Below are positions 37,050 through 64,000 of a DNA stretch of 64,000 nt, piece after piece. Below the pieces are notes generated by a model. It was not told where the DNA came from. It saw nothing but the letters and a program-made list of their open reading frames with translations, and did no database searches. Source of the stretch: an uncultured Planctomycetota bacterium. Lineage in GTDB: Bacteria; Planctomycetota; Planctomycetia; Isosphaerales; Isosphaeraceae. The stretch spans positions 468,287 through 532,286 of the forward strand of contig CAWJTV010000036.1 in assembly GCA_963845755.1 (NCBI GenBank), in the 5' to 3' direction. Every line of letters begins with the position of its first letter. The first letter of the stretch is position 1. The position numbers and the translations under genes were made by a program.

Positions 37050-37196
37050 ATGGCTCAATTACCTATGACGAATGACCCGGAGAACGGTAAGCTGGACGTT
37101 CCGAACGAGTTCTTGGGACGGAATCGGGGGAATCCAAGACCTCGCCCCCCCCCTGCCCTGCCGCGCCGATCGAAGGTCGGCACTGATCCGACATGA
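37050..37196 (+). CDS. Candidate 48-aa leader peptide upstream of the fusA paralog
   Basis: GGAGG at 37035-37039 and ATG at 37050; MAQLPMTNDPENGKLDVPNEFLGRNRGNPRPRPPPALPRRSKVGTDPT*. The stop is 7 nt before the fusA ATG. Confidence 0.35.
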   Translation: MAQLPMTNDPENGKLDVPNEFLGRNRGNPRPRPPPALPRRSKVGTDPT

Positions 37197-37203
37197 GGCC
37201 ATC

Positions 37204-39334
<2,131 letters not shown>

Positions 39335-39449: not shown

Positions 39450-39746
39450 TCAGGCCCGCGATTGCCAGATCGACGGATCTCGGGACGTGTGAAAGATGGA
39501 GATCACGATCACTTCCCCTGGCTCCTCCCGATAGAGGACGATGTACGGAAACTGTGTCACTCGGACCTTTCGGACCGGTCCGTACACAGGCGCATACATC
39601 TGGGGGTTCGCCGCGATCCGATTGAATGCCGCTTGAACCTGGGCGAAGAACCGGGATCCGAGGCCGGGCCGGCGTTGTTCATACCAATCGACAGCCTCGT
39701 TGACCTCAACCCTTGCCTCGGGCAAAAGCCGTACCGGAAGGATCAT
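39450..39746 (-). CDS. RelE/ParE family toxin
   Basis: LLPEARVEVNEAVDWYE..PGLG..FPYIVLYR..VISIFHTSRDP. ATGA overlap with the upstream antitoxin. Confidence 0.88.
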   Translation of the reverse strand: MILPVRLLPEARVEVNEAVDWYEQRRPGLGSRFFAQVQAAFNRIAANPQMYAPVYGPVRKVRVTQFPYIVLYREEPGEVIVISIFHTSRDPSIWQSRA

Positions 39747-39973
39747 CGGGTCAGTCGATTCAGAATCTCGGCCTCCACTTGCTCCCAAGGAACGGCTGCC
39801 TGGGGGTTAGCCAGGTGTGCGGCCCAGCGGCGATCGACCTCCTGGCGCTGGGCTTCGGTCAATGGTGAAGCCTCGATGTCGGTGGCAATGCTGTCCCAGA
39901 TTTCCTCGACGAGTTGGAGGCGCTCATCAACGCTCAGGCGGTCGATCCCCAGAGAAGTCATGAGTGTTTCCAT
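39743..39973 (-). CDS. Addiction module antitoxin (TIGR02574-like)
   Basis: LSVDERLQLVEEIWDSI..LTEAQRQEVDRR..PWEQV. Confidence 0.88.
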   Translation of the reverse strand: METLMTSLGIDRLSVDERLQLVEEIWDSIATDIEASPLTEAQRQEVDRRWAAHLANPQAAVPWEQVEAEILNRLTR

Positions 39974-42314: not shown

Positions 42315-43064
42315 GTGAATCGACCGACGATGAGGCCAACCCCCCAACCTCCGACGCTCGAAGTCTACATGCTGGGGCTGGTCAACTTCGAAGAGGTCCA
42401 GCAACTCCAGCGCCGGATGGTCTACGAAGTCGGCGAATCGGGGATTGCGACACTCATCCTGTGCGAGCATCCGCCGACGATCAGCGTCGGCCGGACCGGC
42501 AGCCGCGCCCATATTCTCGCCGATGACGAGGTGCTTCAGGGCCTGGGAGTGAAGGTCTACTATGTCAACCGCGGTGGGGGCTGCGTGCTGCATGTCCCGG
42601 GCCAGCTCGCGGTGTATCTGGCGCTGCCGCTGGAGCCTCTGGGCTTGAACGTTCAGGGTTACGTGGATCGATTGCATTCCACGATCCTGGGGGTCCTCGA
42701 AGAGTTCGATCTCAGCGGCGCCCTCCGGCCCGAGCTCCCGGGCGTCTTCTCGGGGCCGGCGCGAATCGCCACGGTCGGCGTCGCCGTGAACCGATGGATC
42801 GCCTATCATGGACTGACGCTGAACGTCGGCCCGTATCTCGAATTGTTCCACGTGCTGGAGGAGCCGGGGATCGGCAAGGCACCGCTCCGTCACACGTCGA
42901 TGGAATCCCGCCGGCAGCGCCAGACGCCGATGCCGAAGGTGCGCGAGTCGCTCGTTCGCAAGGTCGAGGAGGTCTTCGGCCTGGAGCGGCACCACCTTTA
43001 TACCCAGCACCCGCAGATCGGGCGAAAGACGCTTACCCATGTTTACGCTCCCAGTCCTGGATGA
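42315..43064 (+). CDS. lipB: Lipoyl(octanoyl) transferase
   Basis: LCEHPPTISVGR, NRGGG..HVPGQLAVY and WIAYHGLTLNV. Upstream of lipA. Confidence 0.85.
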   Translation: MNRPTMRPTPQPPTLEVYMLGLVNFEEVQQLQRRMVYEVGESGIATLILCEHPPTISVGRTGSRAHILADDEVLQGLGVKVYYVNRGGGCVLHVPGQLAVYLALPLEPLGLNVQGYVDRLHSTILGVLEEFDLSGALRPELPGVFSGPARIATVGVAVNRWIAYHGLTLNVGPYLELFHVLEEPGIGKAPLRHTSMESRRQRQTPMPKVRESLVRKVEEVFGLERHHLYTQHPQIGRKTLTHVYAPSPG

Positions 43065-43958
43065 ACCGACGGCTCAGGCCCCCGGCGAGGGCCGCGGCGG
43101 ATCGCGTCGGCTCCCCGACTGGCTGAAGCGGCCGATCCCGGCAGCCGGGGGAATGGCCTTTACCCGGAAGCTGGTCGAAGAGCTGGGACTCGAGACCGTC
43201 TGCGAGAGCGCCCGCTGTCCGAACCGCTCCGAGTGCTGGACGCGACGGACCGCCACGTTCATGATCCTGGGCGATGTCTGCACGCGCCCCTGTGGCTTCT
43301 GCGCAGTGAAACGAGGACGGCCCGAGGCTGTTGCCTTCGACGAGCCGGAGCGGCTCGCCGAGGCCTGCCATCGGCTCGGCCTGCGGCACGTCGTGATTAC
43401 CTCCGTCACCCGCGACGACCTGCCCGACGGCGGCGCGGAGCACTTCCGCCAATGCGTCGTGGCCGTTCGACAGCGGACCGGCGCCACGATCGAAGTGCTC
43501 ACGCCCGACTTCGACGGCCGGCACGAGTTGATTGACACCGTTCTCCTGTCCCGCCCGGAGGTCTTCAACCACAACCTCGAGACGATCGCCCGGCTCCAGC
43601 AACACGTGCGACGGAAGAGCCGCTATGACGTGAGCCTGTCCGTCCTGGCGCACGCCAAGGCGTCCTGTCCCGCGACGCGGACCAAGAGCGGCCTGATGCT
43701 CGGACTCGGCGAGACGATCGAGGAAGTCGTCGAGACCATGGCCGACCTGCGCGCGATCGGTTGCGACCTCCTGACGCTCGGACAGTACCTCCAGCCTTCT
43801 CCCGGGCACCTCCCGGTCGTCCGATATCTCCCGCCGGCCGAATTCGACGAGCTCGGCCGCCTCGGCGCGGGCTCGGGTTCGCCGACGTGGCGAGCGGACC
43901 GTTCGTCCGCTCGAGCTATCACGCCGACGAGATGGCGCGCCACACGGCCGCGACCTGA
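43039..43958 (+). CDS. lipA: Lipoyl synthase (frameshift near 43870)
   Basis: TVCESARCPNRSECW, CTRPCGFC, TSVTRDDL, NHNLET, KSGLMLGLGE, GQYLQP and GPFVRSSYHA. Confidence 0.96.
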
Positions 43959-44461
43959 TCCAACCGCCTCCCGGTGCGAATCCGATCCGGACAAATCGGG
44001 CGCCCCGGGCCCCAGCTCCTCCCGGCATCGTCCCGGGGGCGGAAATCCTGAGAACAGGTGGAAGAACAGGTGAGGGGCGGGGCTTTTTAATTGACATATG
44101 TACAGTAGAATCAGGACATCGTCGGCTGGCTCGACTGCCGTGCCGGGGGGCGCCTCCACCGGCTTGAGACCGGGATCATTTCGATCGAGAATGAACAATA
44201 CGCACCTCGGGCTCACGCAGTCGGACATGGGTTTCGGAAGGCTGATTCAGACCATGTATTATCCATATTAAATTAATATGTTGTTGTGTTATAATTTCCA
44301 AATGAGGCTGCCGGTACAACGGATGGAATGGAGCGCAACCAGGCCGTCGCGAACCGATCATCCTGGTAGCATGGCGTGTCGTCTCATCGCGATCCGGAAA
44401 CGGCCAGCGGGTGGCTCGTAGCTTCCGGCCTTCGGGGTGGGATTCCACCGGGAGTCGATCA

Positions 44462-45383
44462 ATGCCGCAGCCTGCCGGTCCGGATCACGACCAGCGCCTC
44501 AAGGCGTTGCTCAAGGAGTTCTTCGAAGCCTTCATTCGTTGCTTCTTCCCCCACTGGGCGGATCGGTTCGATTTCGGCGAGATCGACTGGCTGGACAAGG
44601 AGTTGTTCCTCGCACCGCCGCGTGGGGAGAGGCGGCAGCTCGACCTGGTGGCCCGGCTGAAGTTGAAGCCCGGCGCGCCGCCGCCCCGCGACGGCGTGAA
44701 CGACCTGGTGGCCCTGATCCATGTCGAGGTTGAGTCGCGCGAGTGCACGGTGCCCTTCCGGCCGCGGATGTTCGACTACTACGTGCAACTGCGCCGCGAT
44801 TACGGGCTACCGGTGTTGCCGATCGCGGTGTTCCTGCGGGTCGGGATGAACGGCATCGGCTGGGACGCCTACGAGGAACACTTCTGGGAAGAGGAGGTCA
44901 TCCGGTTCCGGTACGCCACCATTGGCTTGCCGGGCGTTCCGGGATTGCCGTACGCGACCGGCGAGAACCTGCTGGGCGTGGCGCTCGAGCGCCTTGATGG
45001 ATCTCCCCGACGACCGTCGGGCCGAGCTGTACGTGGAGGGATTGAAACGGATCGCCGGTTCGGGAGAGAATGATTATCGGCAGTATCTCCTGGCCGAATG
45101 CCTGGAGGCGTACTCGGATCTGGACGAAGGTCAAAAGGCGCGGGTGCAGGCGTTGCTGCACACCGAGTCGTATCGCGAGGTCAAACCCCTCATGAAGACC
45201 ACCTACGAACGCGGCATCGTGCAGGGCGAACTGCGGTCGGCCCTGCGGCTGATGGAATTCAAGTTCGGCCCGTTGTCTCCCCAGGTGAAGCAACAGGTCG
45301 AGGCGTTGTCGGAGGACGCGCGGCGCAACTTCAGATCGATCTCCTCAAGGCAAACCCTCGCGGAACTCCACCTGGACGACTGA
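44462..45383 (+). CDS. Rpn-like PD-(D/E)XK protein with a DUF4351-like C-terminus (frameshift near 44990)
   Basis: DHDQRLKALLKEFF..FFP, LDKELF, DLVAR, LIHVEVES, RMFDYY and PVLPIAVFL. Tail MKTTYERG..FKFGPLS..VEALS. Confidence 0.8.
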
Positions 45384-45449
45384 CTTCCAGGTCGTTCATC
45401 GACGACACCGGCCAGGGTGGCTCGTCTGCGACGGGACGGGACGCGGCTC

Positions 45450-46042
45450 AAAGCGCGGGTGCAGGCGTTGCTGCACACCGAGGCGTATCAGGAGGTCGAA
45501 CCGCTCATGAAGACCACCTACGAACGCGGGGTTGAAGACGGTATCGAACAGGGCGAGCGTCGGGCGGCCCTACGACAAATGGAAGCGAAGTTCGGCCCGT
45601 TGTCCCCCGAAGTCAAGCAACGGGTTGAGGCGTTGTCGCCTGAGGCGCTGGACCAACTCCTGCTCGATCTTCTTGGGGGAAACCCCTCGAGGAACTCCGC
45701 CTGGACGATTGAAGCCCAAGTCCTTCGCGGACGACGCGGGGCAGGTGCGCTGGCTTTCGCCGAACTGGACGAGGCCCAAAAGGAACGAGTGCAGGCGTTG
45801 CTGCACACCGAGGCGTATCAGGAGGTCGGACCCCTCATGAAGACCACTTACGAACGCGGGATCGAGGACGGCATCGAACGCGGCGAACTGCGGTTGACCC
45901 TGCGGCTTATGGAATTCAAGTTCGGCCCGTTGTCTTCCCAGGTGAAGCAACAGGTCGAGGCGTTGTCGGAGGACGCGCGGCGCAACTCCAGATCGATCTG
46001 CTCGAGGCGAAGACTCTCGCGGAACTCCACCTGGACGGTTGA
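45450..46042 (+). repeat. Two tandem copies of the Rpn C-terminal cassette (small ORFs about 45507-45712 and 45837-46042)
   Basis: gtgcaggcgttgctgcacaccgag..GGAGGtc..ATGaagaccac recurs with 315-bp and 330-bp spacing. Each copy encodes MKTTYERG..KFGPLS..VEALS..L.LD. Confidence 0.85.
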
Positions 46043-46214
46043 AGGCCAAGTCGATGGGCGACGACACCGGGCAAGATCGATCGTCTGACGGAACGGGACG
46101 CGTCGGTGAAAGTGTACGAGAAGGCGTGCCGTGTGGGTCGAGCGGAGCGAGGCCGACCGGGTTGCCCGGCGGATCCCGGTCGGCTGTACGCCGCTCCGCG
46201 ACGTTCGACCCACC

Positions 46215-48708
46215 CTACGGCCCGTCTCGTACAGCCTTCCCGTTTCCGGACTCCTTCACTGGCCGCACCAGGCGGCCAGGGGTGCCCTTTCGATCGGCTT
46301 TGACGCTCGCGAGCTGCTGGGTGAGCTTGTCCAGATGGCGTCGTGTTTCGATCCGATCAGGGTCCAGGGCGAGGGCCCGTTGGGCGGCTTCGACCGCCTG
46401 GACGAGGGCCTCCTCGACGAGTTGATCGTCGTCGCTTCGCATGGCGTTTTTCTTGATCTGGTCGTAGGAGTGGCTCAGCACGAAATAAGAAATCGCATGA
46501 TTGGGATACTCCCGGACGAGTCGCCGGGCGAGCACCATCAGACGTGCGGCGGTTGCGCGGGCGTCGTCGAGTCGGCCGTGCCTTCGATGCTCCCCGGCGG
46601 CGATGATTGCGTTGTCCGTCAGGACGAAGACCGCCGCCAATACCATGGAATCTGCAAGTCCAAGCTTTCGAACACCGCTCTCGAAGCGCGGAGATCAGCG
46701 CGGTGGCCCCAGTGTCGGGGTCTCGGTCGTACTTCGCGGCAACCGACGAGGAACGGAACGGAGAGAGCGATCCGACCGAGAGGGCAAGCCACTCGGCGAC
46801 GAAACGCTCGTAGGCGTAGCGAATCCTCTTGTCTTTGCGAGAAGACATTCTCATGAGATCAGGATGTTGAAACAACCGGCCGAGCGTCTCCAGCCCCGGG
46901 GGAGACGCGTCAGTCGAACTTGCGATGTCCGATCTAAGGAGGTGTCGCAGGATCTGCTGGCTCACGCGTCGCGATCGATCCCTCTGATCTGTTCGACCAC
47001 TGTGTTCGAGAGGATCTGCGAGATCCTGCAGTCTCTTGTAGAGGAGTGTCAGAATAATGTATGTCGATTCGCTCGGCTCGAAATCCCTCTGGATCGCGAA
47101 TGCCTGTTCGTAGCAGTTCAGGGCGATTCTCGAGTTGACCCGCGCCTTCGGCCAAGCAACCGGATTGGAAAAGGGCTTGTCCGAGGCAGATCCGAGCCTC
47201 CTCGTCCTCAGGATTCTTCGCCAATCCTCGTTTGAGGTCGGCGACCGCTTGATTCGAGAGTTCCCGGGCTTCTTCGTCCTTGCCGACGGACACCAGTGCC
47301 CAGCCAATCTCCCATTCAAGAGCGCCGAGGGTGGAAGACGGAACGATTCCGCGGTTTATCAAATCGATGGTGGAATTCCGGAGCCTCAAGAGTGACGCCT
47401 CCATTTGGTCTTGCGTAGCACTCCGCTTCTGACGGATGGATGTCTGGAGTAGTAATGCGAGCTGACCAGCGGCGCTCGCAGAAAACTCTTCAAGAGCCTC
47501 CGCATTGTGTCGTGCCTCGGCAAGCCGCGCCTGCGTTCGGCTTCAGTTTGGTTCAAGAGGACGAACAGCCCCGCGACCCCCATGGCCAGGGTCATTGCCA
47601 GCGTAACCAGGAGGCCTGCGACGGCCGGGTGCCGGCGGCACCAGCACCAGGCATGCCCCATCGGGGAGACGCGGCGGGCCTTAATCGGACGACCTTCCAG
47701 CCAGAGCCGCAAGTCGCCAGCCAGGGCCTCAGCGGATGGGTAGCGACGGCTTGGCGCCTTTTCCAGGCAGGTGAGGCAGATGGTTTCGAGGTCGCGGGGA
47801 ATCCGAGCATTGAGCCGTCGCGGGGGGACGGGGTCCTGGTTGCGGACCTGGTCGAGCGTCTCGGTGGTTGACGCGCCCTGGAAGGGCGGACGGCCCGTCA
47901 GCAGGTGGTACAGGAGCGCACCGAGGGCATAGAGATCGGCGGCGGGGCCGATCGTGCCGGGAACGGCGGCCACTTGCTCGGGGGCCATGTAGGACGGCGT
48001 CCCCTTGGGTCCGTTGGCGCCGGTCTGAGTCGTGCCCGGCTCGTCTTCGAGGCGGGCGATACCGAAGTCGGAGATCTTGGGTGAGACGGTCTCCCAGGGG
48101 GCTCCCCGCTCGCCGTCCAGTAAGATGTTCGACGGTTTCAGGTCGAGGTGAACCACCCCGCGGGCGTGGAAATACCCGACGGCGCGGGCGATCGTTTCCA
48201 TGAGCCATGCGGCATCTCGGGGCGGGAGCGGCTCGGTCAATCGATCCTTGAGCGTTCCCCCCGATACATATTCAAGGACGAGCCACAGCCATTCCTCGGT
48301 CTCGTCCACTCGATAGATCGTCACGACATGCTCGTGCGGCACCCGCGAGAGCGCCCGCGCCTCGGCCAGCCAGTGCTCGCGCGCATGCAGGATCGACCAG
48401 CGAGTTCCTCGGAAACAGTTTCACGGCGACGTGGCGATTCAGCGTGGGTTCGCGGGCGAGGTAAACCACGCTCGATCCTCCCCGGCCCAGCTCGCGCTCG
48501 ATGACGAGGCCGGGGAGTTCGGCGTGGCGTTCCGGGCCGGCGCGGGGTGGGCCGCTTGCGGGGCGGCATTCGTCGCGGCTTCGAGGACCTTCTGGCAATC
48601 GGGGCACTGCTCGACATGTTCCTCCAAGCCCCCGAAGATGGCCTCGCCGACGGCCTCGGTCCCGATCAAGCGGAGGGTCACCTCCGAAGGGCAGGTCGTC
48701 ATGGTCAC
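46215..48708 (-). CDS. Ser/Thr protein kinase, ECF-associated type (multiple frameshifts, possibly a pseudogene)
   Basis: N-terminal HVEQCPDC, ELGRGG, VAVK, HLDLKPSN, ISDFG, GTPSYMAPE, ADLYALG and TM segment PAVAGLLVTLA. Confidence 0.85.
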
Positions 48709-63394: not shown

Positions 63395-63571
63395 AGCCCC
63401 TAATCCGCCAGCTTTAGGAGTTCACACCATGCAGGATGACAAACATTTAATATTTCCATTGATGGCAGACTTGTCAAGCCGATCGAGGTCCTAGGCAGGG
63501 CTGTTGACTGTTTCATTCTGGGCGGGTACGAGAATCTTTCGTCGATCAGGAGACCGTGCACCACGGAAGTG

Positions 63572-63670
63572 CTGGCCCAACTCCAGCTCGATCTTCTCGA
63601 AGCACGAGCCCTCGAGGATCTCCGCTTGGAGGGCAGAAGCCCAAGTCGTTCGCCGACGACACGCGGCAGG
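63572..63670 (+). pseudogene. Remnant of an Rpn C-terminal cassette and its downstream spacer
   Basis: LAQLQLDLLEARALEDLRLEG followed by aagcccaagtcgttcgccgacgac, matching about 45650-45745. Confidence 0.75.
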
Positions 63671-63965
63671 AACGCTCGGCAGTCTGGGTGGCAGAATCAT
63701 CACGCAGGATCTGGAACGCGGACCGTGAGAGCGGACACAGCGCCTGAGACCACCCTGAGGACACGGACACGATGGTAGCCGGGCTCTGCGTTCGCTTCGC
63801 AGTCCCCATCGTGGCCTCGCGGATGGCCTGGATGACCAAACCCCGGAGAGAAACCAAGCTGCCAGGAACCGATCCTGGTCGCATGACGTGTCGTCTCGCT
63901 CCCGAACGACTTGCGAGTGGTTCGTCCGTTCCGGCCTTCGGGATTTGGTGCCACGGGAGTCGATC

Positions 63966-64000
63966 ATGCCGCAGCCTGCCGGTCCGGATCACGACCAGCG
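63966..64000 (+). CDS. 5' end of a second Rpn-like gene copy (runs off the window)
   Basis: atgccgcagcctgccggtccggatcacgaccagcg is identical to 44462-44496. The upstream ~100 bp is also homologous to about 44350-44460. Confidence 0.8.
   Translation, partial: MPQPAGPDHDQ

Follow-up and report, generated by a model that had tools for sequence, protein, structure and literature searches.

Does a planctomycete nuclease gene carry its own antidote in its last codons, with further versions of that antidote lined up behind it? The question is raised by a locus in a stretch of 64,000 nt (the window) from an uncultured member of the Isosphaeraceae, which lies at the end of contig C36 in an assembly of 14.3 Mb. 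An earlier note, made from the sequence alone, had described an Rpn-like nuclease gene followed by tandem copies of its 3′ end, and had proposed a gene-within-gene toxin-antitoxin system with orphan antitoxins that could recombine through a shared block.

The array consists of a 307-aa gene and, on its 3′ side, two units of ~320 nt (Table 1), each comprising a ~70-nt gene-derived copy, a Shine-Dalgarno (SD) site, an ATG and a variant DUF4351 tail. The sequence ATGAAGACCAC starts at three places, 45192, 45507 and 45837, and a repeat search returned one family with three copies at spacings of 327 and 330 nt, plus one spacer family. The three ATGs, the SD sites, the variant tails and the tandem recurrence described earlier were all borne out by these scans. 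The unit size of ~250 nt given for the two recurrences has to be revised to ~320 nt, because the start-to-start distances are 315 and 330 nt; a unit holds an upstream block of ~70-75 nt, an ORF of ~200 nt and a spacer of ~50 nt. The cassettes encode helical DUF4351 tails and the spacers hold no separate gene. The SD of the in-gene ATG is GAGGT (−6.6 kcal/mol) and that of both orphans AGGAGGT (−10.7 kcal/mol). The in-gene tail differs from orphan 1 at 37/189 nt and from orphan 2 at 16/190 nt, the repeat helix has lengths of 24, 28 and 28 in the in-gene tail, orphan 1 and orphan 2, and the units of the array differ among themselves by 8-20%. Judged from their sequences, the two orphans are likely intact and different from each other. 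A scan of the array region found no classical terminator on the + strand; the hairpin behind the array is a possible transcript end and probably a general repeated element of the REP-like kind.

Table 1. Features of the array and its surroundings, in window coordinates.
Feature	Position	Strand	Basis
Weak promoter-like site upstream of the full gene, 9/12 consensus match	44164..44192	+	consensus scan
Full Rpn-like gene, RpnL-like, 307 aa with three assembly indels discounted	44462..45383	+	ORFs, profile/structure comparison
Predicted PD-(D/E)XK domain (residues ~8-158) of the full gene, with D10, D61, E89, E91 and R102	44462..45383	+	
Predicted internal sigma-70-type promoter, −35 TTGAAA, 18 nt, −10 GAGAAT	45042..45071	+	scan, synonymous constraint
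In-gene shared block encoding the ...VQALLHTE... helix, ending in SD GAGGT at 45177-45181	45117..45191	+	
In-gene small ORF, RpnS-like, ~64 aa, DUF4351-like, without extra 4-aa repeat	45192..45383	+	
Spacer 1 and 70-nt shared-block copy with AGGAGGT	45384..45506	+	
Orphan small ORF 1, ~68 aa, one extra 4-aa repeat, most divergent tail	45507..45712	+	
Spacer 2 and 75-nt shared-block copy with AGGAGGT	45713..45836	+	
Orphan small ORF 2, ~68 aa, one extra 4-aa repeat	45837..46042	+	
Terminal spacer	46043..46100	+	
Long hairpin 3′ of the array, z −5.5, partial copies on ~10 other contigs	46113..46233	.	folding, genome search

As assembled, the gene carries indels of +1 at ~44986, −1 at 45321 and −2 at 45349, and each orphan lacks one base (at ~45676-45685 in orphan 1 and at 45978 in orphan 2). 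Short-read contigs of near-identical strains, with a low depth of 2-8, lacked four of these five indels. Contigs of 6 of the 8 short-read runs aligned to the window had no extra base at 44986, and the contigs supplied the missing bases at 45321, 45349 and 45978. Among the contigs listed none spans the whole array, and no near-identical one covers the orphan-1 indel, which lies in G/C homopolymers. A 153-nt contig matched 45277-45426 with no substitution, a contig from the same run matched 45803-45953 with one, and a 118-nt contig matched 45904-46020 with four. Since the contigs with zero and one substitution cover them, the existence of the in-gene tail and of orphan 2 does not depend on the assembly. 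A programmed frameshift at 44986 was considered and rejected: short-read contigs do not have the extra base, and its kind varies from one assembly to another.

EF-G (37072-39334) and lipA (43039-43958) of the window are likewise split by one frameshift break each, likely also assembly errors. In 97%-identical stretches, the single-base indels that separate the window genome (G000) from that of its sister species G001 numbered 6 over 6.6 kb and 3 over 2.2 kb. With 10 duplicate loci set aside first, 18/34 genes of the family were intact in records that we take to be long-read assemblies versus 57/65 genes in the others. The indels of the array are thus mostly assembly errors, and the array is not the assembly stutter that the earlier note had considered. 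An artefact, or a truly frameshifted pseudogene array, would account for the five indels as assembled and for the recurrence of the +1 at 44986 and of the tail −1 in G001; it is at odds with the divergence between the units, with the in-frame copies of the in-gene tail and orphan 2 in near-identical short-read contigs, with the runs lacking the 44986 base, with the breaks in EF-G and lipA and with the contrast between the two groups of records. We give this explanation almost no credence and regard it as already largely refuted.

The closest named homologs of the long protein (~75% identity) belong to Isosphaeraceae and other Planctomycetota, in agreement with the planctomycete setting assumed earlier. 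The search returned 1158 homologous proteins, and within the bacterial family the distribution was patchy and multi-copy (26/121 genomes, 1-13 matches each). Profile searches gave a divided answer. The DUF4351 HMM matched all three tails of the window, with the Pfam cut-off passed only by orphan 1 (34.6 versus 25 bits), but neither the window protein nor its close homologs matched the Rpn HMMs (TIGR01784, PF04754) at cut-off, and no family was found for the N-terminal part of the window protein among Pfam, NCBIfam and PADLOC profiles. The paralog L024 reached 14.7 bits against an Rpn cut-off of 52.1. Among 87 distant members, 23 matched TIGR01784 and 6 matched PF04754 at E ≤ 0.01, and full-length matches (29%) to Nostoc proteins annotated as Rpn had an E-value of 1e-21. 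The window genome also holds two more distant Rpn-like genes of another subfamily (G000:C1:119036 and G000:C27:46251; ~30% identity) with an E-V-Q motif.

The catalytic residues of E. coli RpnA are given as D11, D63, E82, Q84 and R94 in the available text of PMC5350276. In a weak profile alignment to RpnA (probability 12%, E 0.0024, 15% identity over the aligned core; RpnE 2%), D11, D63, E82 and R94 fall on D10, D61, E89 and R102, all present in the window protein, and D10, D61 and E89 are invariant in 87/87 distant members. The position of Q84 is taken by E91, with Glu in 73 and Gln in 9 of the 87 distant members. An AF2 model of P0009, an intact homolog 84% identical over the N-terminal part, had a pLDDT of 92.5. 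Its best structural match was NucS, with a Z-score of 8.1 that is near the range the tool calls common (rmsd 3.0, 98 aligned), followed by McrC (Z 7.2, rmsd 3.8, 116 aligned). The 8 best rows of VIA-align all cover residues ~4-173, with PD-(D/E)XK nucleases matching the first ~160. Foldseek with the same model returned nothing at E ≤ 0.001, a first AF2 model built on a narrow alignment had a pLDDT of 70.6 and matched no fold clearly, and a PDB sequence search gave nothing below E 0.16. RpnAS (7TH0) is missing from the structural matches listed, which excludes nothing. Matches to FliH, Yae1 and an 'invertase' were rejected since they fall on the low-complexity 4-aa repeats.

From the models, a PD-(D/E)XK fold is predicted for the N-terminal domain. 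The gene belongs to a distant, mainly Planctomycetota branch of the Rpn nucleases that lies below the Rpn HMM cut-offs. The long protein is predicted to work like an Rpn although it fails the HMM membership test. The description as an Rpn-like nuclease with a DUF4351 tail thus held, on the strength of the Rpn HMM matches of distant members, the Nostoc proteins, the RpnA alignment and the predicted fold.

The earlier note had further suggested that a small protein is translated from within the gene. A Met at or near residue 244 is present in 77/79 close and 79/87 distant members. Where the Met lies in the exact internal-start column (44 of 75 intact genes), the median SD energy is −6.6 kcal/mol, compared with −2.3 kcal/mol at 147 other internal Met codons. 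Codon choice tracks the internal SD: Glu-5 is encoded by GAG in 38/43 genes versus 65% elsewhere, and Arg-3 by the rare AGG in 5/7 versus 3% elsewhere. A promoter consensus scan of 43900-46400 gave two promoter-like sites where 0.3 were expected, one of them inside the gene and 120 nt upstream of the internal ATG. In homologs its −35 and −10 codons are TTG in 41/44 (background 16%), AAA in 36/42 (17%) and AAT in 43/43 (31%); these codons (Leu194, Lys195 and Asn203) rank 1, 3 and 6 for synonymous constraint among all tested positions in 44 homologs. The p-values of the codon and SD statistics are overstated because the homologs are related sequences, and the ranks therefore weigh more.

The internal start of the earlier note thus gained support from the conserved Met, the stronger SD, the codons that fit it and the constraint on the promoter codons. 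A conserved internal SD and start codon before a variable tail are present family-wide as a sequence signature, and the in-gene tail is likely also made as a small antidote from the internal start. The codon-level signs of a promoter inside the gene make such a promoter a prediction. The tail changes faster than the N-terminal part (61% versus 78% identity), and its repeat helix varies in four-residue steps in 40/42 genes. In a complex model, P0009 with its own tail scored 0.64 and the best of three controls 0.00, with the interface at residues 244-271, contacts agreeing at least 92% between runs and a partner pLDDT of at least 85. The mark applied to such models was reached by 116/157 solved and 2/215 mismatched pairs, and the P0009 score may reflect likeness to the solved RpnAS dimer (PDB 7TH0). 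The model predicts that the small protein binds the long one via the repeat-bearing helix.

Trailing cassettes were also found in relatives. Among the 152 loci collected, 109 genes had a complete tail. For 86 non-duplicate genes with at least 400 nt of downstream sequence, 14 had an orphan (13 with one, 1 with two) and 72 had none. Three orphan loci were added by hand: L148, L121, which is truncated, and L039, which carries two orphans and had been left out for being a near-identical paralog. Outside the window there were 19 orphans at 17 other loci, several of them from short-read assemblies. The ATG was kept in 19/19 and all 18 complete orphans were open over 63-88 codons, some at only ~46-63% protein identity to the in-gene tail. 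The orphan copies of the earlier note are real. Homology upstream of the orphans extends over 0 to 168 nt, and two orphans have a weak SD. The idea that orphans begin at the predicted transcript start was dropped because the block lengths scatter over this range.

Orphans compared with in-gene tails gave a pooled pN/pS of 0.42, with GC-rich codon use inflating pS. The dN/dS was at most 0.5 in 17/18 computable pairs, and for the first 42 codons of window orphans 1 and 2 it was 0.23 and 0.46; values below 1 cannot separate selection on the orphan from selection while the tail was inside a gene. In 15/23 orphans, window and G001 included, the repeat-helix length differs from that of the own gene; at two loci a double Met called for a one-residue correction of the length. 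Since one extra repeat abolishes neutralisation in E. coli RpnC (PMC10327210, available text), many of the orphans would be expected to be non-cognate. Near-identical duplicates that differ only in repeat number occur at L044 and L061. Units of genome G071 at L226 and L231 differ by 1-14 nt, and in the same genome an untranslated block carries a stop with an open ORF behind it. Whole tandem genes, or a tail remnant directly 5′ of a new full gene, were seen at L035, L112, L136, L233 and in record 9 of short-read contig X2, in line with what has been reported for rpn arrays.

Evidence on exchange came from the sister species G001, which has the orthologous locus with one orphan. The N-terminal parts of the two genes differ at 12/655 nt (98% identical catalytic part) and the in-gene tails at 32/190 nt (17%), a contrast with p 3.5e-13, whereas the window in-gene tail differs from the G001 orphan at only 12/190 nt. 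Spacers switch type mid-sequence, so that the units are mosaics. In G071, 7 nt distinguish the in-gene tail of L232 from the orphan of L227, against 26 nt for the in-gene tail of L227, while the N-terminal parts of the two genes are each other's closest. The locus G001:C2 consists of gene, orphan and terminal block remnant; at the syntenic G000:C33 a decayed, 5′-truncated gene runs directly into the terminal remnant and no small ORF survives, as expected if antidote loss goes with toxin loss. Third-position differences amount to 53/371 (14%) in the shared block versus 279/968 (29%) in the tail, and the block is the less diverged in 11/15 pairs with a block of at least 55 nt, in a comparison that is biased by local-alignment trimming. 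The lower block divergence suggests that older tails were captured or displaced, rather than that tails were duplicated and then decayed. A tail has likely been swapped between close relatives through the shared block, the route that the earlier note had envisaged, to judge from the match to the G001 orphan, the L232/L227 pair, the mosaic spacers and the collapsed G000:C33 locus.

Further remnants lie nearby. The window holds a tail-end and spacer remnant at 63571-63676 and, at 63966-64000, the beginning of a second paralog, which is cut off where the contig stops; the G001 contig likewise ends inside the ortholog, in 12-nt repeats (L018). The 3′ end and spacer of orphan 1 are nearest to the 63571-63676 remnant type (22/114 differences versus 31/111 to the in-gene tail). 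At G001:C20 (L190) there is a decayed 3′ half of a paralog with TTG as internal start codon and an interrupted tail. Window positions 43870-46670 are ~92-98% identical to G001 outside the swapped tails; lipA, lipB and the upstream DHH gene are 84-88% identical and other stretches 97%. This patchwork divergence around the locus is possibly due to recent recombination.

The genes next to the array in the window are lipB, lipA and a Ser/Thr kinase. A ParE module lies 4.7 kb upstream, where a ParE toxin and an addiction-module antitoxin (39450-39973, − strand; PF05016, PF09720) form an ordinary type II pair. PADLOC matched 13/146 neighbouring ORFs at 30 selected loci, mostly with generic kinase, TPR and repeat models; no defence-island enrichment was found among these ORFs, for which there was no background set. 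No recombinase was found beside the array and a search of a phage collection gave no match. As the neighbourhoods carry no clear defence-island signal, an anti-phage role is suggested by analogy alone.

That analogy is with the E. coli Rpn genes. In their available descriptions (Zhong et al. 2023, PMC10400941 / PMC10327210, with commentary in PMC10400984), RpnC, E, F and P1 are reported to have a stand-alone rpnS gene downstream, in pairs or genes named rpnE-rpnESs (ypaA), rpnC-rpnCSs, rpnFSs and rpnP1Ss. The descriptions also report an internal start and transcript, 4-aa repeats and stand-alone DUF4351 small genes (PMC10327210, PMC10400941), and loss, either through deletion or when the N-terminal domain fuses to rpnSs (PMC10400941). 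We checked the K-12 rpnE-ypaA layout in sequence; ypaA keeps ~16 nt of the SD region. The window locus and its branch have in common with E. coli Rpn a PD-(D/E)XK N-terminal part (predicted here), an internal SD and ATG, a variable tail with 4-aa repeats, an internal transcription start (predicted here), DUF4351 annotation of stand-alone tails, a downstream copy that retains its SD, and loss by deletion or fusion. Unlike E. coli Rpn, the branch has only 15% identity to the RpnA core, scores below the Rpn HMM cut-offs and carries an E-x-E motif. Its orphans number up to two, compared with one in the E. coli text and legends, and keep up to ~170 nt of gene sequence. The units are mosaic and in-gene tails match orphans of a sister species or a paralog, while each stand-alone copy of E. 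coli is reported to group with the gene upstream of it (PMC10400941 / PMC10327210, available text). Beyond Zhong et al. 2023 and the commentary, the literature search found no account of the branch or of multi-orphan arrays; Dataset S1 of PMC10400941 may list such loci. The gene-in-gene locus with orphan antitoxins proposed earlier has sequence support, but its novelty was overstated, as downstream rpnS genes are reported by Zhong et al. 2023. Most of the picture was already published for E. coli, with single downstream rpnSs genes and their fusion to the N-terminal domain; the new elements are this branch, its mosaic arrays of two cassettes and the signature of a promoter.

In polymorphic toxins such as CdiA-CT/CdiI, Rhs and MafB, the variable C-terminal cassette is the toxin domain and is followed by a cognate immunity gene. 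Their orphan arrays and the window locus share a constant N-terminal part, a recombination block and downstream variant tails able to replace the expressed one. In the window, however, the predicted catalytic domain lies in the constant part, the cassette is a likely antidote with its own start, and there is neither a separate immunity gene nor a secretion domain. The earlier comparison therefore fits in layout, shared block and exchange but not in what the cassettes encode, because the predicted nuclease fold sits in the N-terminal part and what the cassettes likely supply is the antitoxin.

Taking sequence, models and analogy together, we consider it probable, though well short of assured, that the locus is an Rpn-type gene-within-gene toxin-antitoxin system made up of a predicted nuclease, its own small inhibitor and two variant orphans exchanged with the in-gene tail. 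The last ~64 codons of the predicted PD-(D/E)XK DNA nuclease would also be translated alone, and the small protein would bind and block the nuclease. The internal promoter may produce a short transcript with the in-gene small ORF, followed by read-through of the orphans. RecA-type crossover in the ~70-nt shared block would bring in, displace or delete tails, and because the antidote would be the toxin's own tail, every swap would give a matched pair. The orphans, differing in sequence and repeat number, could act as non-cognate antidotes against other alleles or paralogs. Toxicity of the long form, its neutralisation by the small protein and anti-phage function are candidate roles by analogy.

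It is also conceivable, but in our judgement unlikely, that the gene-in-gene arrangement is real while the orphans are neutral, short-lived by-products of unequal crossover or tandem duplication with no library role, their intact look being owed to a recent stay inside a gene. Such by-products would fit the many loci without an orphan, the near-identical copies at L044, L061 and in G071, the frequent remnants and collapsed loci, the variable length of the upstream block and the lack of a recombinase beside the array. They fit less well with start codons and reading frames kept throughout, even in orphans that have diverged considerably from the in-gene tail, with the open G071 ORF behind a block that carries a stop, and with the expression of the E. 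coli counterpart RpnESs (PMC10400941, available text). Still less probable to us is a nuclease-fold protein whose role is not abortive anti-phage toxicity but selfish addiction, DNA repair or recombination, with the small protein acting as its dominant-negative regulator. The patchy multi-copy distribution and the faster, repeat-varying tail resemble the E. coli Rpn defence genes as far as these are described in PMC10327210, and have to be set against the lack of a clear defence-island context, the E-x-E in place of the E-x-Q of RpnA and the scores below the Rpn HMM cut-offs.

With the Rpn-type toxin-antitoxin system as the preferred reading, the gene-in-gene design would extend to more than 1000 DUF4351 proteins missed by Rpn HMMs, with a codon-level signature of an internal promoter. 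The E. coli work leaves the role of stand-alone rpnS copies open (PMC10400941 / PMC10327210, available text). In the branch, tails that match and tails that do not occur naturally on a catalytic part that is 98% identical. They make it testable whether tail sequence and repeat number set the specificity of the antidote, the phage trigger or both; it can likewise be asked whether the orphans serve for immunity or as a reservoir. That there is a Planctomycetota-wide, expressed and recombining library of non-cognate antitoxin tails 3′ of the toxin, driven from a promoter in the toxin coding sequence, we hold tentatively and with more doubt than confidence. If true, each tail would immunise against other Rpn alleles and, by crossing into the gene, would create a new matched toxin and antidote in one step, giving an intracellular defence nuclease a cassette system in the style of polymorphic toxins.
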